Below, in pieces: positions 20,951 to 31,962 of a stretch of DNA of 64,000 bases. Under the pieces are notes generated by a model that worked only from the letters and a program-made list of their open reading frames with translations, was not told the origin of the DNA and made no database searches. Both the position numbers and the translations under genes were made by a program. Numbering within the stretch: position 1 is the stretch's first letter; each line of letters opens with the position of its first letter. Where the stretch lies: positions 2,657 to 66,656 of the forward strand of contig MNYS01000008.1 of NCBI GenBank assembly GCA_001873215.1, in the 5' to 3' direction. The stretch is from Candidatus Levybacteria bacterium CG2_30_37_29. Its GTDB lineage: Bacteria > Patescibacteriota > Microgenomatia > Levybacterales > GWA1-39-11.

Positions 20951-21382
20951 TTAGTTTTGGGATTCCTTTTCTAGAAGGGCTCTGTGTTCTGCTATAAACA
21001 ATCTTGTTGATACTGTCAAATGCAATTTTTCAAGCTCCTTAAGTGTGAAAAACTGAAGAATTTGACCATTTGATCGGTTTATATTATTAACATTTTCGTC
21101 TGTCAACTTAGCATGATAGAAATATTTTCTGATGTCATTAAATAGAGGACTTGCTATAAATTCAATTGTTCTGAGTCTTACGCTTGTTTCTCTTTCTACA
21201 GAACTTGAGATAGATTCTTCAAAAGTTTTATTTTTTTCTTTTGAACCGCTTATAAAACACCAAATATTCTGTTGAGCGAGTGTTTTTTTGTCTTGTTGTG
21301 CGGGGGTATAATTTTGGAGCTTCAAAAGAACTTTACCTTTATAAGTTAGAAGAATAAGACTTATATCAATTTTATTGAGCAC
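20951..21382 (-). CDS. hypothetical protein with a degenerate Nudix-like box
   Basis: SGSKEKNKTFEESISSSVERETSV partly matches GX5EX7REUXEEXGU. Confidence 0.3.
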   Translation of the reverse strand: MLNKIDISLILLTYKGKVLLKLQNYTPAQQDKKTLAQQNIWCFISGSKEKNKTFEESISSSVERETSVRLRTIEFIASPLFNDIRKYFYHAKLTDENVNNINRSNGQILQFFTLKELEKLHLTVSTRLFIAEHRALLEKESQN

Positions 21383-21499
21383 ATTTATATTATAGCACTA
21401 TTTGTAACAAATAGTATGTTGAAAAAATACAACGAACCTTGAAAACCATCGGCGTTCCTTGAAGAGGAGAACTGTTTTTGGTATCATTATCAAGCTTAT

Positions 21500-21570
21500 T
21501 GCCGGATCGTCTAACGGTAGGACAACGGACTTTGGATCCGTTTACCATGGTTCGAATCCATGTCCGGCAG
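21500..21570 (+). tRNA. tRNA-Gln(TTG)
   Basis: UGCCGGA acceptor, anticodon loop CUUUGGA, CAUGGUUCGAAUCCAUG T-arm, discriminator G. Confidence 0.8.
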
Positions 21571-21594
21571 CAAAACCATTATTATTATTCATGT

Positions 21595-21960
21595 ATAAAA
21601 TTCGGGGGGGTTAGAATTGGAAACCAGCGAGGGAAAAAACTTGGGTTTCCTACCGCAAACACAAACCTTTACAAAAATATTCCAGAAGGAATATACATAT
21701 CAAAAACAAAAATAAACAATAAGATTTACCCGTCTCTCGCTTTTATCGGCCGTTCTATAACTTTTAATGAAACAGAGTTTAAAGCGGAAACGCATCTGCT
21801 TTCTTATAAAAAAAGCCTATACAACACTTGGATAAGTATTGATCTTGTAAAAAAACTTCGAGAAAATAAAAGGTTTGATTCTGCAGAAGACTTAATTAAG
21901 CAGATGGAAAAGGATAAAAAAGACGCACAGGAATATTTTAAAAAAAAGAAAGATGTTTAG
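21595..21960 (+). CDS. riboflavin kinase domain protein (possible ribF remnant)
   Basis: GxxLGFPTANT motif. The frame is open from inside the tRNA, with no in-frame ATG/GTG/TTG between the tRNA end and the domain. Confidence 0.5.
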   Translation: MKFGGVRIGNQRGKKLGFPTANTNLYKNIPEGIYISKTKINNKIYPSLAFIGRSITFNETEFKAETHLLSYKKSLYNTWISIDLVKKLRENKRFDSAEDLIKQMEKDKKDAQEYFKKKKDV

Positions 21961-22124
21961 CGGTTATAATAAAACTTACAAGGTGAGGAGAGTTGATCAG
22001 TTCAAAACATCATTCAGGGATGTTGTGAGTTATTTTATACAGAAAGGAAGACAACCGTTCTCTATCTAGCCAACCAGGACAATAATTTGACTATTCAAAT
22101 AACCTACAATATAATTCAACAAGC

Positions 22125-23135
22125 ATGCTGCAAAAATTGTTACATGATAATATTTTAGTTACTGGTGGCGCAGGTTTTATTGGGTCGCATCTTGTTGATA
22201 AACTTATTGATAAAAATCATAAAGTAATTGTAATCGATGACCTTTCGAGTGGATATAAAAGAAACGTTAATCGCAAAGCTAGATTGATTAAATGTGATTT
22301 ACGAGAATATAAATGTGTTGATAGCATAATTAGAAGAACAAAACCCAAAATTATATTTCATTTAGCGGCAAATGCTGCTGAAAATAAGGCTCAATTTTCT
22401 CCTATAGACATTACTACAAGAAATTATAATTCTTTTTTAAACGTATTAGTTGCCGGTTTAAAAAATAGCATGAAGAGAATAGTAATTACATCAAGTATTG
22501 CCGTTTATGGATCAAAACAAATACCTTTCAGCGAAAATGATAAACCCGAACCAGAAGATTTATACGGCTTAAGTAAATTAGAGATGGAAGAGACTCTTAA
22601 AATCTTATCGAAAGTGCATAAATTTGAGTACGTAATTACTAGACCTCACAATGTTTATGGACCAAGACAAAACATGAAAGACCCTTATAGAAACGTCGTT
22701 GTTCTATTTATGAATGCAGTTCTTAAAGGAGAACCATATTATATATATGGCAACGGAGGCCAAAGACGGTGCTTTTCATATATTTCTGACGTTGTAGAAG
22801 CAATATATAAATGTGGTTTTTTAAATGTTTCTGGAAAAATATTCAACATAGGGTCAGATAAGAGTTATAATATTAATGAACTTTCGAAAGAAATTCAAAG
22901 AATTACAAACGTAAAGATTAAACCAAAACACCTTCCATTAAGACCACAGGAAATATTGTTAGCAATATCAGATCACACGCTTTCTAAAAAATATCTTAAA
23001 TATAAAGATCAAACTAGTCTTTCTGTGGGGATAAAAAAGACGTGGGAATATGCAAAAAAAATTGGATACCAGAAACCAGTATTTGGTGGTATTGAATTAG
23101 ATAGCCCTTTATTGCCGAAGAATTGGAAGAATTAA
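22125..23135 (+). CDS. NAD-dependent epimerase/dehydratase (SDR family, UDP-sugar epimerase-like)
   Basis: N-terminal VTGGAGFIGSHL Rossmann motif and a YxxxK region. Confidence 0.7.
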   Translation: MLQKLLHDNILVTGGAGFIGSHLVDKLIDKNHKVIVIDDLSSGYKRNVNRKARLIKCDLREYKCVDSIIRRTKPKIIFHLAANAAENKAQFSPIDITTRNYNSFLNVLVAGLKNSMKRIVITSSIAVYGSKQIPFSENDKPEPEDLYGLSKLEMEETLKILSKVHKFEYVITRPHNVYGPRQNMKDPYRNVVVLFMNAVLKGEPYYIYGNGGQRRCFSYISDVVEAIYKCGFLNVSGKIFNIGSDKSYNINELSKEIQRITNVKIKPKHLPLRPQEILLAISDHTLSKKYLKYKDQTSLSVGIKKTWEYAKKIGYQKPVFGGIELDSPLLPKNWKN

Positions 23136-23140
23136 TACAT

Positions 23141-23737
23141 ATGAAAACAAATTTTAAAGAAAAGGATTATCTCAAAAAAGATAAATCAATGCACTGGAAA
23201 ACTTTAAAATCCCAAATACAAATTACTTCACCTTGGTATAAGATAAAAAAAGATTCTGTTGAATTACCAAATGGAGTAATAATTAATGATTACTATGTAG
23301 GTCAATTGCTTGATGTATCAATTTTATTTGCGATAACAGAAAAAAATGAGGTTGTATTAGTAAAGCAGTACAGACATGGAACTAAAGATATACAACTAGA
23401 ACTACCAGCAGGAACTTTTAAGAGAGGTAAAGAAAATCCATCGTCCGCCGCAAAAAGAGAGTTATTGGAAGAAACAGGGTTTAGAGCAAATAAGCTTATA
23501 AAGCTGGGAGTTATAGAAGAATATCCAACAAAGAATAGTCATTTAGTTCATATGTTTCTTGCGCCCAAAGTAAAATTTACAGGAAAACAACACAACGACA
23601 TTACTGAGGAAATAAAGACTTATCTATTGCCAATAAATGAAGTAATTACTCTTGCAATAAATAACAGAATTATGGTTGGATCATCTATTACAACAATTTT
23701 ATTGGCTGCATTATCTTTGGGTATAATCAAGAACTAA
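23141..23737 (+). CDS. NUDIX hydrolase (ADP-ribose pyrophosphatase-like)
   Basis: Nudix box GTFKRGKENPSSAAKRELLEETGF. Confidence 0.7.
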   Translation: MKTNFKEKDYLKKDKSMHWKTLKSQIQITSPWYKIKKDSVELPNGVIINDYYVGQLLDVSILFAITEKNEVVLVKQYRHGTKDIQLELPAGTFKRGKENPSSAAKRELLEETGFRANKLIKLGVIEEYPTKNSHLVHMFLAPKVKFTGKQHNDITEEIKTYLLPINEVITLAINNRIMVGSSITTILLAALSLGIIKN

Positions 23738-23764
23738 TAATATTTTGCCATCTAACTTTATAGA

Positions 23765-24328
23765 ATGGATCAAGTATTGGTATTATTACTTTTTAAGGGA
23801 TATCCGGCTACGGGGAAGTCTTATTTGGCTAAAAAATTAGGTAATCACTTGAATATTCCCGTCATTGTTAGGGATAAATTTAAAACAATTCTCGTTAAAA
23901 AAGGTTTTTCTTTAAAGGAAATAGGTTATAGAAGCTATGACATAATGTGGAAATACACCATGTTGTATCTGGGCAACAACAAATCTTGCATTTGCGATAC
24001 AAGCTTAATTCAACCTCACGGTTTATCTAGAATAGAATATATTAAAAAACATACACAAGCAAAGATTATTATCATAGAATGCTATTGTAGTGACAAAAAA
24101 ATACACAAAAAACGACTAATTTCTCGTAAAAAGATTCCTTATTATTATGGAATTAAAACTAACGAGCAATTTAAGATTTTTGTAAAGGAAAATAAGAAAT
24201 GGGATAATTTTTTATTTCCATACTGCACAATTAGAGTAGATACCTGTAAGAAATTAAATATTAAGGATTTTTCCTTATTTATAAAAGACATAATTTTATT
24301 AGATGGTAGCAATTTATACTATTATTAA
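23765..24328 (+). CDS. P-loop kinase (AAA_33/zeta-toxin-like fold)
   Basis: Walker A GYPATGKS. Confidence 0.5.
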   Translation: MDQVLVLLLFKGYPATGKSYLAKKLGNHLNIPVIVRDKFKTILVKKGFSLKEIGYRSYDIMWKYTMLYLGNNKSCICDTSLIQPHGLSRIEYIKKHTQAKIIIIECYCSDKKIHKKRLISRKKIPYYYGIKTNEQFKIFVKENKKWDNFLFPYCTIRVDTCKKLNIKDFSLFIKDIILLDGSNLYYY

Positions 24329-24358
24329 TAGAATAATTATAATTAAGTATTGTTAGAC

Positions 24359-25774
24359 ATGAACGAATTACCGACATCACATTTTTCTGAATTGCAAAGT
24401 CAATTAAGACAACTGAGAAAAAATTATAGCATTCCTACCTTTGAGATTTCACCGATGATGAAAAGATCGGACAACCCTTCTATATTCAAAGAGGGCGAAA
24501 TATTTAGCGGATTACTTACTACAAAGAATGCCATGGCTTGCGTCACACTAGTCGCTTCATCTCATACTCCCCCCACTGTTTCTACGGATCAATTTTTATC
24601 TATAGCAAGCGATGTATTTGCAATCAACAGTTCTTTACCAATAGATACCGACATATCCATTTTAGCTCCTCAGGTTATTGTCTGGTGGGGCAAGAATGAT
24701 ACATCAGAGATAGATAGTGATTTTTCTAAATTATATAATTTAGACTCTTTAAATCGTCAAGAATTCATTAGATTAATTTCAGATGAAACAATCTTAGCAG
24801 TAAAACTAATAAAAAAAATTAAACAATCAGCTACAATATGGGGTTCATGGGGAAATGGATCCGATAATGAAAGAGTTTTTACCGGTAGAAGTAGAGGAGG
24901 TCCGACTAATAAAATAGGGCATACTCATGTAACGCATTTTGATGAGGCCAGAAAAATTTCTATTCCTAGACTCCAACAAACAGATGCCAAGGATGCAGTA
25001 AATTTTTACTCTCCTTGGGTAACACTTGTGATGGAAAAGTTTGGTGGGGATTTCTCTAATTTTATCAATCAATCTGTTAAAAACGATACTATTGATATTC
25101 CAGAATTTACAATAGAACAGACAAATATGGATTTAAGTACATCGGGCCATCATGATTTTCATAATGGATTTGAAATAACCTTCTCAAGCCCTGCAAAGTA
25201 TGCAAAGGTGGTGGATATGCTTATTTCAATAGGAGGAAAATCAGAAATTTTATATAAAGATTTATTGTTGTTATATGAAGAATTTTATAAGGATTTATTT
25301 ATGAAAAAATCTACAGATGAAACGTATAATCATGGTTATTTAAAATTGAAATCATACGGTTTTTCTCAAAGAACGGCAGAAAAAATGTTAGGATTTTTAT
25401 TTTCAATTAGACCTACCAATATTCAGATTTCAAATTGGATAGAACAAATGAGTAAGTATAAAAATGTAGACGTAAATTTACTTCTAAATATAGCAAACAG
25501 ATACGCTCACGTGTCAAAAAGAATAAGAAAAAATAAATCTTATAACACGACAGTGAATAGTTTAGTATATGATACTTATCGAGATAAAGAGGAAATTGAA
25601 AATATTAAAACAACTTGGCCTGAACACGCAAGCTACTGGTATCTTATTAATGATTATAAATTATCAGGCGACGAAATACTAGTTAATACTCTTAAACTTT
25701 TTCCTCTAATAGGGACTAGTGTCACTGGGCCAGAAAGAATATTGGGAGGAATAATTAAACGACCCCTAAAATGA
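24359..25774 (+). CDS. hypothetical 471-aa protein
   Basis: Long intact ORF, no recognised family. His cluster GHTHVTHF. Confidence 0.4.
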   Translation: MNELPTSHFSELQSQLRQLRKNYSIPTFEISPMMKRSDNPSIFKEGEIFSGLLTTKNAMACVTLVASSHTPPTVSTDQFLSIASDVFAINSSLPIDTDISILAPQVIVWWGKNDTSEIDSDFSKLYNLDSLNRQEFIRLISDETILAVKLIKKIKQSATIWGSWGNGSDNERVFTGRSRGGPTNKIGHTHVTHFDEARKISIPRLQQTDAKDAVNFYSPWVTLVMEKFGGDFSNFINQSVKNDTIDIPEFTIEQTNMDLSTSGHHDFHNGFEITFSSPAKYAKVVDMLISIGGKSEILYKDLLLLYEEFYKDLFMKKSTDETYNHGYLKLKSYGFSQRTAEKMLGFLFSIRPTNIQISNWIEQMSKYKNVDVNLLLNIANRYAHVSKRIRKNKSYNTTVNSLVYDTYRDKEEIENIKTTWPEHASYWYLINDYKLSGDEILVNTLKLFPLIGTSVTGPERILGGIIKRPLK

Positions 25775-26514
25775 GGACGCTTGTATTTTTTAACTTAGAA
25801 AATTTATTTATTGCCTCGTCTGAATTACGTTATAGTCCTACTCCTTTTTTAAGAAGACAAATAAATAAAATATGGAAGGTTTACCTGCTAAAAGCAAAAA
25901 AAAACAATCGTCCAATATGGAATGGTAAAGTTTATCGGTTAGAAAATATAACTAAAAACCGAAATGCGGTTTATTTGAAATTAGGATTTATTGATTATAA
26001 AACTTATCTTTCTTCCTTTGATTTAAAAAATGTTTTTAATAAATATCCTTTTCAAGAAAGACCTAATGGCTTATACGTTGCATCTCATATTATTACGAAG
26101 GATGGAAAATTTATTATTGGACAAACCGCAGACAATTCACTTTTTAAACATAACTTCGATTTGATAAGTGGTAGCTTAAACTATTATAATAAGAAAAAAA
26201 TTAAAACAGCAGAAGACATAAAATTATTTTGGCAAAGCGAGCTAATGGAAGAAGCATCCATACCCGCTGAATTGATAGAAAAAATAGAAGGAATATGCAT
26301 TACTGTTACGAGCTCTGGAAGAATAGGATTTTTTTTTCAAACAAAACTTAAAATTACTGCTATAGATTTCAAAAAGACGGCAAAAATAAATTTTGAACAC
26401 AAAAAGCTTTTGTTATTAAATAAAGAAGAATTATTACTTTTAATAAATAATAAGAAATTCTTTGTCAATCCAGCCGTAAAATATACGTATAAATTTATTG
26501 AAAATAAATTGTAA
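25771..26514 (+). CDS. hypothetical 247-aa protein
   Basis: Intact ORF overlapping the upstream stop by 4 nt (likely translational coupling). Confidence 0.35.
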   Translation: MRTLVFFNLENLFIASSELRYSPTPFLRRQINKIWKVYLLKAKKNNRPIWNGKVYRLENITKNRNAVYLKLGFIDYKTYLSSFDLKNVFNKYPFQERPNGLYVASHIITKDGKFIIGQTADNSLFKHNFDLISGSLNYYNKKKIKTAEDIKLFWQSELMEEASIPAELIEKIEGICITVTSSGRIGFFFQTKLKITAIDFKKTAKINFEHKKLLLLNKEELLLLINNKKFFVNPAVKYTYKFIENKL

Positions 26515-26575: not shown

Positions 26576-27694
26576 CTAACTGTCAGCTCCTACTGCATCG
26601 GCGATATTTTTGAAGCCGTCTATTGCAAGAAGCTTTACCAGGCCTGAATTTATTTCATGAATTAACTGCGGACCTTCAAAAATCATACCGGTAATTAATT
26701 GGACTAAGGATGCGCCTTTTTTTATTTTTACATAGGCGTCTTGGGCGCTAAAAACCCCGCCGCACCCAATAATTGCGAATCTCTTTTTATAATTCTTGTG
26801 TGCAAATTTTATCAGCTCATTTGAGCGTTCAAAAGTAGGCTTTCCGCTAAAATTTCCAATTCTAAACTTTATTACCTCACTTTTTATTAAAGACGGATGA
26901 GAACGGTCTTTTTGTAAATTACCAAAAATGACTCCTTTGGAAGAATGCTTTGCAATCACATCAAGCATAATTTTTATCACCCGAGTGCTGTTTGATATTG
27001 GCATTTTGACAAAAAACGGCTTTTTAAGCCTTAGCTTGTCAATTTCAGACAGTAAATCTTCCAAAGTCTTTTTTTGTGTAAAAAGTAACATTTCCAAAAA
27101 GATTTGGGCAACTGATGTTGAGTTCATAATAACTATTTTTTACGCGAGCTTTTTCAAAAATCTTAAGAGCGCAAATTATGTCTTCAACGCTTTGTTTTTG
27201 ATTTAATTTTGCACTATTTGTTCTACCAATGCTTATTCCTATAGGAATTTCAAAATTTAATTATCCTAATGTTTGTGCAGTTTCTTCTGCCCCGAAATTT
27301 CTAAATCCCTTATTACCATCAGCGATTTTGATTTTGGTAGTCTGCCCAATTGCGGTCTCGGATTTCCTTCATAAGCCATGTTGGTAATTGTTCCAACTGT
27401 TTGAAAACCAAATCCTACACTTAGTGTGATTTGGGTAAGACGCGTTTCATAATCAAACCCTGCGGCAAGACCAATAGGATTGGGGAAATTTATCCCGGAC
27501 AATTCTTGATGCAAAACCGAGTTAGTTATTTTAAATTGCGATGAAATAATTTTTCTTAATCTTTTATTCTGTCCTAATTTCTCCCCAAAAGCAGTTGCTC
27601 CAATGTGAACTTTTTGGGGATCGGTTCTAAAGAAAACAGGATTTAGAATTCCACTATAAGTTTTTTTTGTAATTGTCGGTATTAATCTTCGCAC
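26576..27694 (-). pseudogene. pyrD: dihydroorotate dehydrogenase (pyrD) disrupted by frameshift
   Basis: The N-terminal piece (27266-27694) has FPNPIGLAAGFD. The C-terminal piece (26576-27127) has IIGCGGV…GASLVQ. The two are colinear but in different frames, with a 138-nt gap. Confidence 0.6.
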
Positions 27695-27805
27695 GATTAG
27701 AAATTATGCGCCAAATGATCATTAAACGCAATTAATCACAAGTAAATATCCAGCCAAAACATTCTTCTGTTTACATTTCAGCTTTGTAAATTTATACTGT
27801 TGCAT

Positions 27806-28876
27806 ATGGGACTTTTACGTTTACTATTCGCGCTCACCATAGTAATCTTTCACACGGGAGATATTTTCGGGTACAGGATATTTAACAGCAGACTTGCAAT
27901 TCTTTCTTTTTTCGTCATTTCAGGCTTTTATATGGCTTTTATTTTGGATAGAAAATATTTTAAAAAGAAGCATTCATTCAAGTTATTTATTGTAAACAGA
28001 TTTCTTAAAATTTACCCTATTTATTGGGTTTCACTCTTAATCATTGTCCTTTTTGGGGTTGTAAAATATTTATTTAACGCTGGTGGTCAAGATAATTTCA
28101 TTTCTCATTTTTTTCAGTATTCAACACACATAAATGGATTGGCAATGCTTTTATATTCTGTTAATTTTATTACAAGAAATATTACGCTTGTTGTAAATTC
28201 TGACTATTTTTTCAAGCCTGATATGACACCGGGATATTTACTTGTTCAGCAAGCTTGGACTCTACAAATAGAATTATTATTCTACGTTCTTGCACCATTT
28301 CTTATGTTTTTTTCAAAAAAACATTTTTTATTGCTTTGCTCTTTATATTTAGTACTTGCCCATATCGTTTTAGCAAATTTTATAAGCAAAAACCAAATCT
28401 TTCTTAGCGCGCAATTTGTTTACTACTTGGTTTTTTTCTTAATGGGCATGTCTTCATATAGATTTTTATTTGGTTTTTTAGAAAAGAACAAAGCAAAACA
28501 ACAAATTTTTAAAACAATATTTGGGGCAGCCGTTATCATTATTCTGATTTATAATTACACACCATTATCAATGCTTTCCGTAACACCGGTTTTTGAGCTA
28601 GTTTTCTCCTTTATTTTTGCGTTATTTGTACCTATTATTTTCTCAGTAACAAAAAATTTTAAATTTGATAGGTTTTTGGGCGAATTGTCTTATCCTCTTT
28701 ATATAATTCATTTTATTATTGTAAAGATGTTTGTGAATTTTACGCTTGTTGATACAAATTTAAAAAAGCTTATGATAGTAACTATATCGCTTGTTATATC
28801 GTACAGTCTTTATAAATTTATTGAATTTCCCATAGACAAATTCCGCCAAAAAAGGGTAGCATCTTCATCGGAATGA
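27806..28876 (+). CDS. acyltransferase-3 family membrane O-acyltransferase
   Basis: 10-11 TM segments with N-terminal FHTGDIFG-type motifs of the Acyl_transf_3 family. Confidence 0.65.
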   Translation: MGLLRLLFALTIVIFHTGDIFGYRIFNSRLAILSFFVISGFYMAFILDRKYFKKKHSFKLFIVNRFLKIYPIYWVSLLIIVLFGVVKYLFNAGGQDNFISHFFQYSTHINGLAMLLYSVNFITRNITLVVNSDYFFKPDMTPGYLLVQQAWTLQIELLFYVLAPFLMFFSKKHFLLLCSLYLVLAHIVLANFISKNQIFLSAQFVYYLVFFLMGMSSYRFLFGFLEKNKAKQQIFKTIFGAAVIIILIYNYTPLSMLSVTPVFELVFSFIFALFVPIIFSVTKNFKFDRFLGELSYPLYIIHFIIVKMFVNFTLVDTNLKKLMIVTISLVISYSLYKFIEFPIDKFRQKRVASSSE

Positions 28877-29697: not shown

Positions 29698-29724
29698 TCT
29701 TCCTTGACCTGCCCGCTAATACTG

Positions 29725-29796
<72 letters not shown>

Positions 29797-29941
29797 ATAA
29801 GCTCTGCAGGCGGGCAAGGAAGCATTCTTAGGCGCACAGTGAAACGAGCACCGCAAGCTCTTGCTTACCGGTGAATTACTCCCGCTGAAAAAACTTGTTT
29901 TTTCAGCACCAGGTTCTCGCAGTGCTCGAAACTGGCGCAGT

Positions 29942-30196
29942 CTATGTTTTTAAACTCATTACTAATTTTAATTTTCTTTCTCTTGGCCAACTTTTAATTT
30001 CCATTTCGCGTTTCAATGCCTGTGACTTTGTTTTATATTCTTCTGAATGAACTAATTCAACAGGCAACTTACCTTTTATTGATTTTGCGCCCTGCTTTCC
30101 AAAATTATGTTGCCACAATCTGTTTTTTATATTTAATGTATATCCTGTATAAAAAGAGCCGTCACTACATTCGACAATATAAACATAATGCTTCAT
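29942..30196 (-). CDS. small GIY-YIG nuclease-family protein (YhbQ/UPF0213-like)
   Basis: The YVYIVECSDGSFYTGYT…RLWQHN…GAK catalytic motif set fills essentially the whole 84 aa. Confidence 0.75.
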   Translation of the reverse strand: MKHYVYIVECSDGSFYTGYTLNIKNRLWQHNFGKQGAKSIKGKLPVELVHSEEYKTKSQALKREMEIKSWPRERKLKLVMSLKT

Positions 30197-30232
30197 TGTT
30201 CTATCTTAGTTATAAGCTCTGCGAAAATCTAG

Positions 30233-30324
30233 CGTGCCAATTTCAACCTGCCTGAACATAGACTGTGCCACATACGAACAACGTGAGTACGTGGCACTGA
30301 AATTTTAGTAAAAATTTCAGTGCC
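30233..30324. repeat. tRNA 3'-flank repeat with two hairpins
   Basis: The 43-nt core at 30241-30283 is identical to 30584-30626. It is followed by the GGCACTGAAATTTT-agta-AAAATTTCAGTGCC hairpin, whose 3' arm overlaps the tRNA-Phe 3' end. Related to 6058-6114. Confidence 0.6.
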
Positions 30325-30393
30325 GAGACCAAGAATTGCACTCGGATAGCCTGTTCTTCAGACAGGTGCCTTGACTACCTCGGCCATCTCGGC
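30321..30393 (-). tRNA. tRNA-Phe(GAA)-like
   Basis: GCCGAGA/UCUCGGC acceptor and anticodon loop CUGAAGA. The D-stem is 3 bp with a Ser/Leu-like D-loop (GAGGUAGUCAA), and the T-loop UGCAAUU is non-canonical. Discriminator A. Confidence 0.55.
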
Positions 30394-30403
30394 AAAAAAA
30401 TAC

Positions 30404-30454
30404 TATATTCGATTGCGAATTCAATGCAATCTCAGACAGTGATTGCATTATATC
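30404..30454. repeat. 51-nt IS-target/IS-end-like repeat (intact copy)
   Basis: TATATTCGATTGCGAATTCAATGCAATCTCAGACAGTGATTGCATTATATC. The first 31 nt are 29/31 identical to 47105-47135, and the tail matches 48255-48271. Confidence 0.55.
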
Positions 30455-30461
30455 AAATGTG

Positions 30462-30534
30462 TGGGCGGTGCAAGACTTGAACTCGCGACATCTTCGGTGT
30501 AAACGAAGCGCTCTACCAGCTGAGCTAACCGCCC
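30462..30534 (-). tRNA. tRNA-Val(TAC)
   Basis: GGGCGGU acceptor, anticodon loop UUUACAC, GCGAGUUCAAGUCUUGC T-arm. Confidence 0.85.
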
Positions 30535-30583
30535 TTTAAACTTTCCTTAGCACAAACCAACATTTGAACAAACCATGTGTTAG

Positions 30584-30626
30584 TTTCAACCTGCCTGAAC
30601 ATAGACTGTGCCACATACGAACAACG
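30584..30626. repeat. tRNA 3'-flank repeat core (second copy)
   Basis: 43/43 nt identical to 30241-30283, ending 10 nt before the tRNA-Leu(GAG) 3' end. Confidence 0.6.
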
Positions 30627-30635
30627 GGAGAAATG

Positions 30636-30722
30636 TGCCGAGGACAGGACTTGAACCTGCACGTCTTATTTAAGGACACAAGAACCTCAATCTTGCGTGT
30701 ATACCAATTTCACCACCTCGGC
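30636..30722 (-). tRNA. tRNA-Leu(GAG), long variable arm
   Basis: GCCGAGG acceptor, anticodon loop UUGAGGU, 17-nt variable arm, GCAGGUUCAAGUCCUGU T-arm. Confidence 0.8.
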
Positions 30723-30776
30723 AAGCTTCGGCGCAAACACCCAACTTGTACAGTTAGTATTTTACCAAACATAGTC

Positions 30777-31757
30777 ATGTTAAAACAAGAACACATTGCT
30801 ATAATGTTTTTAATGGATGTTATTTTTATATTTTTTACAATTCTTGGTCTATCTCTTTTTGAAATAATTACAAGCATTGACAATGCAATTATTAATGCTG
30901 AAGTGCTCGGAGGAATGAGCAATAGAGCAAAAAAATGGTTTTTGACATGGGGAATAGTATCATCTATTTTCATTGTCAGAGGAGTCTTACCCTTTCTTAT
31001 TCTTTATGCAACCGTTCCACAACTTGGTGTTGTAAATACCATAACCGCAGCTTTTTCATCAGATCCCAATATTGCTGAAACCATAAAAGAATCATCTCAT
31101 GTTCTGCTTATTGCAGGGGGGGTCTTTTTAATTTTTCTTTTTTTTCACTGGCTTTTCTTAGAACCTAAAAATTTTGGCCTTAGGGGCGAAAGGTTTTTCC
31201 ATTCAAAAGGTGTTTGGTTTTATGCAATCGTATCAATACTTTTAACAGTAATTGTGTGGTTTGCATTCAAACAAAACAATCCATTGCTTCAGTTTGGCGC
31301 CGTTGTAGGATCTACAATGTTTTTTATAATTCATGGATTCAAAGGATATGCAGAAGAGCAGGAAAAAAAACTTTTATCGGTTGGCGTATCTGATTTTGCA
31401 AAAATTGCATACCTTGAAATACTGGACGCAAGCTTTTCAATTGATGGAGTAATCGGGGCTTTTGCATTTACCTTTGCAATTCCTCTTATACTTATAGGGA
31501 ATGGCTTAGGAGCAATCGTATTGAGGCAAATAACAATTAGCAATATAGAACGGATAAAAAAATATAAATACCTAAAAAACGGAGCAATGTATTCGATTTT
31601 AATACTTGGTATTGTAATGCTTTTGCATAGCTTTAGAATTGAGATTCCTGAATGGTTATCACCCGTTGCAACATTTGCAATTGTTGGTTACTTTTTTTAC
31701 AAGTCAAATATTGACCTTAAAACAATTACTGACTTATCTGAACCAAATAAAAAGTAG
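30777..31757 (+). CDS. TerC/DUF475-family integral membrane protein
   Basis: SIDNAIINAEV motif and ~8 TM segments. The track ORF starts earlier (TTG at 30564), inside the tRNA genes. Trimmed here to the first ATG past them. Confidence 0.55.
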   Translation: MLKQEHIAIMFLMDVIFIFFTILGLSLFEIITSIDNAIINAEVLGGMSNRAKKWFLTWGIVSSIFIVRGVLPFLILYATVPQLGVVNTITAAFSSDPNIAETIKESSHVLLIAGGVFLIFLFFHWLFLEPKNFGLRGERFFHSKGVWFYAIVSILLTVIVWFAFKQNNPLLQFGAVVGSTMFFIIHGFKGYAEEQEKKLLSVGVSDFAKIAYLEILDASFSIDGVIGAFAFTFAIPLILIGNGLGAIVLRQITISNIERIKKYKYLKNGAMYSILILGIVMLLHSFRIEIPEWLSPVATFAIVGYFFYKSNIDLKTITDLSEPNKK

Positions 31758-31782
31758 AGAAGTCCCACTTCATTTTTCAAAG

Positions 31783-31874
31783 TGCCCGAGAGAGGACTCG
31801 AACCCTGCCTGCCGGCAGGCAGGCTCCACACCATTGCTGGTACAGCGTTCTGAACGCTGCTTGTCTACCTGCCA
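31783..31874 (-). pseudogene. tRNA-Leu(CAG) 3' three-quarter fragment with a 20-nt palindrome in the T-stem
   Basis: D-arm, CAGCG-UUCAGAA-CGCUG anticodon arm, long variable arm and CUCGGGC-A acceptor 3' strand are all present. Removing CCTGCCTGCCGGCAGGCAGG (31804-31823) restores a GGAGG/CCUCU T-stem. There is no matching 5' acceptor strand locally. Confidence 0.6.
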
Positions 31875-31881
31875 AAGCATG

Positions 31882-31962
31882 TGCCAGGAGGGGGACTCGA
31901 ACCCCCACATCTTGCGATACACGGTTCTGAACCGTGCTTGTCTACCATTTCAACATCCTGGC
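31882..31962 (-). tRNA. tRNA-Leu(CAG), intact
   Basis: GCCAGGA/UCCUGGC acceptor, anticodon loop UUCAGAA, 13-nt variable arm, GGGGGUUCGAGUCCCCC T-arm. Begins 4 nt after the GIY-YIG stop. Confidence 0.8.

Follow-up and report, generated by a model that had tools for sequence, protein, structure and literature searches.

A five-gene accessory operon of Patescibacteria with a probable role in sugar-nucleotide or sugar-phosphate metabolism

A stretch of 64,000 nucleotides from Candidatus Levybacteria bacterium CG2_30_37_29, an ultra-small bacterium of the CPR (contig MNYS01000008.1; hereafter the window), contains five tightly packed genes, two of which encode large proteins that a preliminary description of the locus could place in no family. 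Because NUDIX hydrolases and kinases recur together in nucleotide-signalling and anti-phage systems, that description hinted at such a function. What, then, do these five genes do together?

Organisation and composition of the block

All five open reading frames of the preliminary description were found, co-directional and abutting or overlapping, between positions 22125 and 26514:

22087..22115, plus strand: promoter-like site, TTGACT-17 nt-TATAAT (11/12), ending 10 bp 5' of gene 1
22125..23135, plus strand: gene 1, SDR, ORF of 336 aa
23123..23737, plus strand: gene 2, NUDIX, 204 aa, with an alternative ATG start at 23141
23765..24328, plus strand: gene 3, P-loop kinase (AAA_33), 187 aa
24359..25774, plus strand: gene 4, U470, 471 aa from the ATG (the form found as database protein P0001) or 474 aa from a TTG at 24350
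25771..26514, plus strand: gene 5, U247, 247 aa

The SDR and NUDIX genes overlap by 13 bp, or are separated by 5 bp if NUDIX begins at ATG 23141. Gaps of 27 bp and of 21–30 bp precede the kinase and U470 genes, respectively, and the start of U247 (25771) lies 4 bp inside the end of U470 (stop at 25774). The promoter-like site has the joint-best score in a 6-kb region and is the only one positioned to drive the block; since the total of such sites in this region is below shuffle expectation, the candidate is suggestive by position only.

The AT-richness noted earlier by eye was borne out by calculation. The GC content of the block is 0.299 (29.9%), whereas segments of equal size along the window average 0.357 (sd 0.021), and the block is the lowest-GC 4.4-kb stretch of the window. 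In other genomes, the GC content of the module equals that of the host. The flanks are also as described: upstream, the ORF of a flavokinase remnant overlaps the tRNA-Gln gene, beyond which it offers no in-frame start; the downstream pyrD, split and carrying about 7 stops in frame, is a pseudogene. The borders are free of att-like repeats, integrase genes and mobile-element genes. The block is a discrete, compositionally distinct unit that looks co-transcribed.

The five encoded proteins

The family calls made earlier for the first three genes stood. Gene 1 matches PF01370 in Pfam (E 1.8e-51); its top NCBIfam model is GalE (E 4.2e-42, under the equivalog cutoff), its closest solved relative is the UDP-glucose 4-epimerase 4zrm (E 2.6e-52), and its translation carries the motifs GGAGFIGS, SSIAVYG and YGLSK. 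The protein is an extended SDR of UDP-hexose / UDP-HexNAc 4-epimerase type, with orthologues of 65–69% identity in three related loci (L004, L006, L012). Gene 2 matches PF00293 in Pfam (E 7.7e-14), NudE in NCBIfam (E 5.9e-17; 61.8 bits, below the equivalog cutoff of 169) and, in the PDB, 2yvm (1.8e-16) followed by ADP-ribose pyrophosphatases. Like its homologues, it resembles NudE, NudF and Ndx2 in sequence, length and N-terminal NDPSase_N region, and is a NUDIX enzyme of this ADP-ribose / ADP-sugar pyrophosphatase type. No such regular association with an orphan enzyme of 470 aa is described for that family.

The Pfam match of gene 3 to AAA_33 is marginal (E 4.3e-06; 27.5 bits, cutoff 27), and its Walker A motif, GYPATGKS, is intact. 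Invariant positions in the kinase family comprise Walker A (GxPxTGKS), R36-D37, D78, R117 and R121. A family profile retrieved 2rhm (7e-10), PSTK (2e-06) and 6-phosphofructo-2-kinase (5e-04) from the PDB, with a full-length match to PSTK and a further match to the Pnkp kinase domain. Gene 3 further matches a PHROG polynucleotide kinase and has weak CMP-kinase and AAA_18 similarity, the NMP-kinase similarity being limited to the P-loop. It encodes an intact P-loop kinase of small-molecule or polynucleotide type with PSTK, 6PF2K and Pnkp as relatives.

U247 was described as lacking a family. This holds for Pfam and NCBIfam, in which none was found, but not at the level of fold: a confident AlphaFold2 model (pLDDT 89.5, pTM 0.86) matches human NUDT22 over its whole length (TM 0.73–0.75; TMq 0.70–0.75), and U247 is therefore not an orphan. 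The top six Foldseek matches are all human NUDT22, with E values of 1e-12 to 6e-12. Human NUDT22 is a UDP-glucose/UDP-galactose hydrolase (PDB 5lor, 5lou, 5lf9) that releases UMP and hexose-1-phosphate. It converts UDP-glucose to UMP and glucose-1-P and supports pyrimidine salvage (PMC10101856), and has an unconventional Nudix box (PMC5688067). By structure, U247 is a NUDT22-like two-domain Nudix-fold protein, sharing the complete architecture of N-terminal and Nudix domains; like NUDT22, it has no conventional Nudix box and is missed by the Pfam NUDIX model. Its box (G134-x22-E157-L-x-E160-E161) differs from that of NUDT22 in the stretched Gly-to-Glu spacing, from G134 to E157. In addition, sequence identity to NUDT22 is just 15–16%, the bacterial protein is about 45 residues shorter and, unlike the human one, it is translationally coupled to the orphan enzyme U470. 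A UDP-hexose substrate would fit the adjoining UDP-hexose 4-epimerase-type gene.

U470, in contrast, remained without a family, as first described, by Pfam (none of 80 family members matched), NCBIfam, PADLOC, PHROG, PDB sequence search (no meaningful match) and Foldseek, in which its model (pLDDT 73.9, pTM 0.79) matched nothing in PDB or BFVD, including any HIT or Rossmann-type structure. A word-indexed search of 5.8 billion proteins yielded six relatives with more than 33% identity, and an exhaustive search a family of 137 cluster representatives; the close relatives that carry a label are Patescibacteria. R36, G165, H188 and R468 are invariant, and the conserved set of an invariant His, three Arg and two Glu is typical of phosphate chemistry. 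The family shows no invariant lysine and no KxDG ligase motif. No resemblance to nucleotidyltransferases, HIT/GalT proteins or phosphotransferases was detectable, and hhalign gave probabilities of 0.35% against GalT and 2.1% against HINT1. U470 is predicted to be a cytosolic enzyme of a small family matching no described family or searchable structure.

Genomic context of U470 in related loci

The order SDR-kinase-U470-U247 was found in L004 and L006, kinase-U470-U247 in L005, SDR-kinase-U470 in L012 and kinase-U470 in L001 and L002; in all six, the P-loop kinase lies immediately 5' of U470. The U247 orthologues of L004, L005 and L006, directly 3' of U470, are 39–45% identical to U247. As the same order recurs in independent CPR contigs with unrelated flanks and only 35–69% protein identity, the arrangement is more than chance. 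NUDIX homologues are found close to U470 in L003, L004, L006, L009, L010, L011, L014 and L017, and NudE-type members in at least nine of about 20 non-redundant loci.

Other kinases occupy the same neighbourhood. A GHMP kinase (HddA/fucokinase-like) lies beside U470 in L003, L009 and L014, an APH kinase overlaps the U470 stop in L015, and a PRK-like P-loop gene adjoins P0110. A 780-aa U470 protein carrying HRDLNWSN...IVDWG is apparently a single fusion to a kinase-like domain, for which the matches are weak (APH, E 0.21; DUF1679, E 0.038). The partners of U470 are thus kinases of three unrelated folds (AAA_33, GHMP and APH), and through overlap, adjacency and apparent fusion U470 is genetically tied both to a kinase and to a NudE-type Nudix. 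From this gene context, we infer that U470 works together with the kinase, transferring a phosphoryl or nucleotidyl group.

Besides the GHMP kinase and the NudE-type Nudix, the sugar and sugar-nucleotide enzymes that recur around U470 are the GalE-like SDR, a DegT/RfbH aminotransferase and an AroB-like cyclase. A short SDR and His_Phos_1 (adjoining U470 in L015 and L017) are further recurrent neighbours. A crude motif scan of 24 loci and the window found no GxGTRL-type sugar-1-P nucleotidyltransferase. The distribution of the module is sparse and patchy rather than universal. The preliminary description had set its proposal against ordinary cell-wall sugar-nucleotide genes syntenic in all relatives; three of the five genes are clearly of sugar-nucleotide type, but the patchy synteny does not extend to all relatives.

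Possible functions of the operon

The operon probably serves sugar-nucleotide or sugar-phosphate metabolism. We give about even chances to a fuller proposal, that of a conserved CPR/Patescibacteria accessory operon for the salvage or activation of sugar phosphates and NDP-sugars by the following mechanism. The kinase would phosphorylate a sugar or cyclitol, and U470 would perform the next phosphoryl- or nucleotidyl-transfer through His188, an invariant residue, and clustered arginines (R36, R179, R468), making or exchanging an NDP-sugar as GalT or a sugar-1-P nucleotidyltransferase does elsewhere. The SDR would interconvert NDP-hexose epimers, and both Nudix enzymes would cleave NDP-sugars to NMP and sugar-1-phosphate, trimming the NDP-sugar pool and feeding nucleotide salvage beside a dead pyrD. 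It is rather unlikely that U470 is, more narrowly, an analogue of a nucleotidyl or hexose-1-P transferase.

In favour of the sugar-nucleotide reading count the enzyme identities, a module conserved between different flanks, the coupling to several kinase folds, the recurrent neighbours, the phosphate-type residues of U470, the pyrD pseudogene next to the block and the absence of a GxGTRL-type nucleotidyltransferase from the loci in the crude scan. Against it, U470 lacks detectable similarity to transferases, the closest solved relatives of the kinase have tRNA-bound serine, fructose-6-P or nucleic-acid 5'-OH as substrates rather than free sugars, two NDP-sugar hydrolases beside an NDP-sugar-forming step would make a futile cycle unless regulated, and the distant members P0064, P0073 and P0120 have no kinase/Nudix context.

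Two known arrangements offer a comparison. The Leloir operon combines the GHMP kinase GalK, the HIT-family uridylyltransferase GalT and the SDR epimerase GalE. The block likewise unites a kinase, a central enzyme that looks His-dependent and an epimerase of GalE type, and in some loci of U470 relatives a GHMP kinase replaces the P-loop kinase. However, U470 is not detectably HIT/GalT, the kinase of the block is P-loop and two Nudix hydrolases are added; the logical triad is shared, and nothing points to galactose in particular. In bifunctional or paired salvage systems (Fkp, a fucokinase-guanylyltransferase; HldE; AmgK-MurU; NahK-GlmU), Rossmann-like NTP-transferase domains bear the GxGTRL signature. 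There too, a small-molecule kinase lies beside the enzyme that follows it in the pathway, or forms one protein with it, and kinases of different fold (GHMP, APH) serve an unchanged pathway logic, as with the kinases that overlap or are apparently fused to U470. U470 has no similarity to these enzymes, and in the crude scan no U470 locus contained their GxGTRL domain.

An operon for catabolic salvage only, stripping nucleotides from scavenged NDP-sugars and ADP-ribose, is unlikely. The epimerase would turn UDP-Gal into UDP-Glc, the Nudix pair release UMP or AMP and sugar phosphates, the kinase act on NMPs, and U470 process the released sugar phosphate or nucleotide. Two Nudix enzymes with NDP-sugar-type relatives, the documented part of NUDT22 in pyrimidine salvage (PMC10101856), the adjacent pyrD pseudogene, the weak CMP-kinase and AAA_18 similarity and a distant U470 member located between carAB and pyrC all fit this scheme. 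Yet the NMP-kinase similarity does not go beyond the P-loop, adjacency to pyrimidine genes, seen at just two loci, may have arisen by chance, and the GHMP/APH sugar-type kinases, AroB-like cyclase and DegT aminotransferase are left unexplained.

Anti-phage defence or nucleotide second-messenger signalling, in which U470 would make or sense a signal, the kinase modify it and the Nudix enzymes degrade it or deplete NAD/nucleotides, is very improbable. GC content low relative to the genome, rare and patchy distribution, the nearby tRNA gene, the Nudix and kinase content and, nearby, one PtuA-like ATPase (L015) and one MmeI_N fragment (L003) would suit it. The original hint nevertheless gained nothing from PADLOC (no match for U470 or U247, only unspecific Nudix and P-loop background for the other proteins), from PHROGs (empty for both) or from a survey of about 20 related loci, in which no nuclease, TIR, pore or protease effector recurred. 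The recurrent partners are sugar-metabolism enzymes, the borders lack signs of mobility and the module shares host GC elsewhere. Even less probable is an RNA end-healing or modification module, with a PNK/PSTK-like kinase, a histidine phosphatase, a Nudix enzyme hydrolysing RNA pyrophosphate ends or ADP-ribose derivatives, and U470 as ligase or transferase. The PSTK, Pnkp and PHROG polynucleotide-kinase matches, the His_Phos_1 neighbours and secondary RppH-type matches of the L009 Nudix agree with it. However, U470 has neither an invariant lysine nor the KxDG ligase motif, RNA repair offers no role for an extended SDR, a DegT aminotransferase, an AroB-like cyclase or GHMP sugar kinases, and ADP-sugar hydrolases are the best-scoring type for the Nudix proteins.

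Gene content of the block and decayed flanking genes

The preliminary description had placed five plus-strand genes between a riboflavin-kinase remnant and a pyrD pseudogene, and the ORF list contains all of them at those positions. The genes indeed overlap or abut, with overlaps of up to 13 bp and gaps of up to 30 bp at the junctions; the one between U470 and U247 is a 4-bp overlap (start 25771, stop 25774). One strong promoter-like site (11/12) ends 10 bp 5' of gene 1.

Genes of the block (ORF list) and upstream tRNA gene
21500-21571: tRNA-Gln, upstream of the block
22125-23135, plus strand: gene 1, SDR
23123-23737, plus strand: gene 2, NUDIX
23765-24328, plus strand: gene 3, kinase
24350/24359-25774, plus strand: gene 4, U470 (471 aa)
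25771-26514, plus strand: gene 5, U247 (247 aa)

Gene 1 is an extended SDR matching PF01370 over its full length (E 1.8e-51), in whose translation GGAGFIGS, SSIAVYG and YGLSK can be read with the NAD motif and the Ser, Tyr and Lys residues intact, and it displays the features of a GalE-type enzyme (extended-SDR fold, GxxGxxG, S/Y-x3-K catalytic residues). Among solved structures the UDP-glucose 4-epimerase 4zrm ranked first (2.6e-52), and UDP-hexose/HexNAc epimerases and UDP-glucuronate decarboxylases came next; the best NCBIfam model was GalE, at 144.2 bits under an equivalog cutoff of 262.3. Gene 1 is likely to encode an epimerase-type SDR, an assignment that leaves out the exact substrate and reaction. 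The gene 2 product scored 52.3 bits against Pfam NUDIX (gathering cutoff 21.1) and matched 2yvm, ADP-ribose pyrophosphatases, NudF and NudE in the PDB while staying under the NudE equivalog cutoff, which places it among the predicted Nudix enzymes of the ADP-ribose/ADP-sugar pyrophosphatase group (NudE, NudF, Ndx2). For gene 3 the AAA_33 score was marginal (27.5 bits, cutoff 27). A profile built from seven orthologues matched 2rhm (7e-10), the L-seryl-tRNA(Sec) kinase PSTK (2e-06, full length) and 6-phosphofructo-2-kinase (5e-04), and Walker A GxPxTGKS, an RD pair, D78 and two lid arginines were invariant in these orthologues. Gene 3 is predicted to encode a P-loop kinase of the AAA_33 / PSTK-6PF2K-PNK type.

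Both flanking genes proved to be decayed. Upstream, an ORF with a flavokinase domain (21478-21960, plus strand) overlaps tRNA-Gln completely at its 5' end, and it contains no ATG, GTG or TTG in frame from the tRNA to the point where the domain begins. Its appearance is that of a C-terminal domain left stranded from a ribF gene. Downstream, pyrD (26576-27694, minus strand) is a true pseudogene whose in-frame halves, covering DHO_dh positions 2-64 (N-terminal) and 139-291 (C-terminal), lie about 50 codons apart and are split by about seven stops. Just upstream of the block, a 143-aa ORF (20951-21382, minus strand) matches NUDIX weakly (E 0.027) and may be a third Nudix-like gene.

The two proteins without a sequence family

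No Pfam or NCBIfam model matched U247 at E ≤ 0.1, in line with its description as a protein without family, and a word-indexed protein search recovered the query alone. The claim that it lacked any homology did not hold, as a structure search revealed the fold of NUDT22. By reading the contexts of the U470 relatives, we recovered orthologues as ORFs of 246-250 aa with 39-45% identity, directly downstream of U470 relatives in three loci (L004, L005 and L006); the ORF found downstream of U470 in L001 is unrelated (13% identity). The AlphaFold model computed from this four-sequence alignment reached a pLDDT of 89.5 and a pTM of 0.86. When it was searched against the PDB with Foldseek, the top six matches were all human NUDT22 (E 1e-12 to about 6e-12, TMq 0.70-0.75), aligned over the full length in 269-275 columns; other Nudix enzymes ranked after them and aligned just to the C-terminal half. 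The two domains of the model, one N-terminal and the other a Nudix alpha/beta/alpha domain against which it packs, can be aligned over the full length. Compared with canonical PF00293, U247 gives no Pfam NUDIX match, the GX5EX7REUXEEXGU box being absent and the spacing non-canonical, but all four family members share G134, E157, E160 and E161 without exception, in a stretched box, G-x22-ELxEE. Human NUDT22 is an outlier of the human Nudix family without a conventional Nudix box (PMC5688067), and U247 may resemble it in this respect. Judging from this model, U247 is a NUDT22-like, two-domain Nudix-fold protein and a predicted hydrolase. NUDT22 contributes to pyrimidine salvage by splitting UDP-glucose into UMP and glucose-1-phosphate (PMC10101856); UDP-glucose and UDP-galactose are given as its substrates, together with a distinctive architecture, in PMC12847042, citing Carter et al. 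2018. A bacterial protein of this fold in an informative operon can help to trace what NUDT22 did ancestrally.

U470 was said to have no family, and this description stands: no match was found in Pfam, NCBIfam, PADLOC or PHROGs. A word-indexed search of 5.8 billion proteins returned six relatives (34-42% identity), and when 1.84 billion cluster representatives were searched exhaustively with a profile, 137 emerged, 85 of them below 1e-30 and nearly all of about 470 aa. Pfam searches of 80 diverse members with a threshold of E ≤ 10 turned up no family that recurred, those on fused and outlier members gave no relevant match, and the family profiles searched against PDB sequences yielded just a spurious match of a helix to protein A repeats. 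For U470, AlphaFold gave a model of reasonable confidence (pLDDT 73.9, pTM 0.79, core blocks 88-97); strands and helices alternate in residues 58-255, residues 281-416 are helical and a beta-hairpin closes the C-terminus in the predicted secondary structure. Foldseek searches against the PDB and BFVD returned nothing below E 0.25, and we took the low-TM matches (class D beta-lactamases, amidase-signature enzymes, HisZ, TolC) as noise.

In the 80-member alignment, R36, G165, H188 and R468 are invariant, and E45, H69, W109, G162, G176, R179, G180, Y299, P352, T353, Q356 and E459 are at least 90% conserved. This pattern has the look of an enzyme signature, and U470 probably binds phosphates. A HIT/GalT reading, suggested by the string NKIGHTHV, was rejected because the HxHxH/HxHxQ triad is not conserved beyond H188: position 190 is His in 60 of the 80 members (75%) and Asn in 14, and the fifth triad position is conserved neither as H nor as Q. 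Moreover, hhalign gave probabilities of 0.35% and 2.1% against HIT/GalT, and Foldseek likewise gave no match. Motifs resembling Fic, amidase-signature, HIGH and class II aaRS proteins, picked out by eye, were discarded since their residues are not conserved in the 80 members. U470 represents a true orphan family, and its function can be tested because its genomic association is strong and specific.

Genomic contexts of the U470 family

About 20 non-redundant loci were read. The gene order of the window recurs at 35-69% protein identity amid unrelated flanking genes, and kinase and U470 genes overlap by 4-8 bp in L001, L002 and L006. Four loci display a second context, in which the best family for the GHMP kinase is D-glycero-D-manno-heptose 7-phosphate kinase (HddA), then fucokinase; this context may correspond to an uncharacterised cyclitol or heptose-type pathway in Patescibacteria.

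Contexts of U470 relatives in related loci
L004, L006: SDR-kinase-U470-U247
L005: kinase-U470-U247
L012: SDR-kinase-U470 (contig ends there)
L001, L002: kinase-U470
L003 (2862-7902), L009 (4361-9443), L013 (1-3222), L014 (4393-9425): second context; divergent from U470 are an AroB-like sugar-phosphate cyclase, a short-chain dehydrogenase and a GHMP kinase, and a NudE-type Nudix lies next to them
L010: DegT/RfbH-type sugar aminotransferase upstream of U470
L015: histidine phosphatase upstream; APH-fold kinase overlapping the U470 stop codon
L017 (830-3172): P0024, a 780-aa U470 whose C-terminal extension contains HRDLNWSN...IVDWG, flanked by a Nudix and a histidine phosphatase

The motif in the extension of P0024 is one that we take to be the catalytic-loop pattern of APH and eukaryotic-like kinases. 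Pfam matches to the extension were weak (DUF1679, E 0.038; APH, E 0.21), and BLAST detected no similarity between the P0024 C-terminus and the APH kinase of L015, so that the kinase-fold reading relies on the motif and these matches. They hint, weakly, at a natural fusion of U470 with an APH/protein-kinase-like domain. Within a few kb of U470, a NudE-type Nudix gene is present in the window, L003, L004, L006, L009, L010, L011, L014 and L017, and a different Nudix gene occupies the corresponding position in L001. From these recurrent contexts, the constant core therefore consists of U470, a kinase of any fold and an NDP-X pyrophosphatase, and the variable periphery of NDP-sugar or sugar-phosphate enzymes. 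GxGTRL is the signature of canonical sugar-1-phosphate nucleotidyltransferases, and no ORF of the 24 loci or the window carries it.

The distant members (about 505-527 aa; P0064, P0073 and P0120), one of them labelled Weeksellaceae, have no kinase/Nudix context, and the association thus defines a CPR-centred core of the family. In the branch of about 505 aa, the U470 genes of L018 and L024 (7001-8518 in both) lie near a SIMPL-domain gene, that of L018 being located between carAB and a dihydroorotase-like gene. The homologue of L011 (8001-9442, a Saccharimonadales MAG) is split into 347 and 128 aa, through disruption of the copy or through an error in the assembly. The 5.4-kb contig CAYPZT010000047.1 (L007, identical to L002) comes from a bin named 'uncultured Gammaproteobacteria'. 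Its adjacent kinase and U470 share 50% and 40% identity with the Levybacteria proteins, and it is probably a misbinned CPR contig.

Proposed role and origin of the block

The operon unites an epimerase-type SDR of the NDP-hexose kind, two Nudix proteins with NDP-sugar-cleaving relatives, an intact kinase and an orphan enzyme whose gene is coupled to that of the kinase. In the pathway that we propose, the kinase would make a phosphorylated sugar or cyclitol, and U470 would perform the next phosphoryl- or nucleotidyl-transfer through His188 and an arginine cluster, the step that falls to GalT in Leloir-type routes or to an NTP-transferase in salvage routes. The SDR would interconvert epimers, and the Nudix enzymes would break NDP-sugars down again to NMP and sugar-1-phosphate, which would keep the pool in check and serve nucleotide salvage; the adjacent pyrD pseudogene fits such Nudix-based salvage. 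We judge it rather probable that the operon belongs to sugar-phosphate or sugar-nucleotide metabolism. The specific transfer role of U470 is a tentative proposal, on balance unlikely to be right in this form. Slightly more doubtful still is the full picture, in which U470 would found an undescribed CPR-centred enzyme family, possibly of a new fold, whose His-dependent nucleotidyl or hexose-1-phosphate transfer replaces GalT or NTP-transferase in kinase-coupled sugar salvage, with the NUDT22-like Nudix as dedicated partner. If true, it would amount to a non-homologous replacement of a central sugar-activation step in ultra-small symbiotic bacteria; should U470 prove to belong, in diverged form, to a superfamily already known, what is left is an ordinary accessory sugar operon.

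Other readings of the block account for part of these data. Purely catabolic salvage would explain the two Nudix genes and the pyrD context, but leaves the diversity of kinases and the biosynthetic-type neighbours unexplained, while a function in RNA repair, which agrees with the relatives of the kinase, fits none of the sugar enzymes. The suggestion of nucleotide signalling or anti-phage defence was not borne out: PADLOC-DB gave no match for U470 or U247, just the generic PDC-S07 for the gene 2 NUDIX (E 5.7e-05) and a P-loop match to IetA for the kinase (E 0.0035), and a PHROGs scan for phage families returned nothing for U470 or U247. Composition and patchiness are all that speaks for defence or signalling, against which stand the lack of a recurrent effector and of any defence model match. 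The block is real and conserved, with three ordinary sugar-nucleotide enzymes, one NUDT22-like Nudix and one orphan family; it is a sugar-nucleotide operon whose central enzyme is non-homologous to any described, rather than a new kind of system or a defence island. Our literature searches found no described CPR module of this kind.

CPR bacteria (Patescibacteria) have tiny genomes with many apparent metabolic gaps, and orphan families are common among them. Unlike the usual CPR orphans, U470 comes with a clear hypothesis derived from its context and a defined set of partners; an orphan tightly linked to kinases of three folds beside sugar-nucleotide enzymes is a pattern that usually marks a missing pathway step. 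The operon touches the question of how CPR obtain activated sugars and nucleotides from their hosts, and assigning an activity to U470 could fill a gap in their cell-envelope or nucleotide-salvage pathways and add a new enzyme family.

The AT-richness noticed by eye was confirmed, as the block, with a GC content of 29.9% against a mean of 35.7% (sd 2.1%) for windows of the same size, is the lowest stretch of this size in the 64 kb; measured against the remainder of the window, it is 6.4 points lower (0.299 vs 0.363). In the codon-usage check, GC3 of its genes was 0.21-0.28, lower by about one sd than the mean of the window (0.277), and part of the shift is therefore due to amino-acid composition. 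In other genomes the GC content of the module matches that of its host (0.362 vs 0.364 in L005, 0.406 vs 0.408 in L006, 0.393 vs 0.411 in L001). Taken with the tRNA nearby and the decay of the flanking genes, this suggests that the present genome acquired the module comparatively recently. A test for a genomic island targeted to tRNA-Gln, however, lent this no support, since no direct repeat involving 21500-21571 and no att-like repeat was detected, nor any integrase-like ORF in the 19-30 kb region of the window. Just past the pyrD remnant, a gene for an Acyl_transf_3 membrane acyltransferase (27800-28876, plus strand) has a very low GC content (0.291), and the AT-rich zone thus runs beyond the block, broken only by the pyrD pseudogene. 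Further downstream (29724-31962), a minus-strand cluster holds five tRNA genes (Gly, Phe, Val, Leu, Leu), with an 84-aa ORF (MKHYVYIVECSDGSFYTGYT..., 29942-30196) between tRNA-Gly and tRNA-Phe whose start appears GIY-YIG-like by eye.
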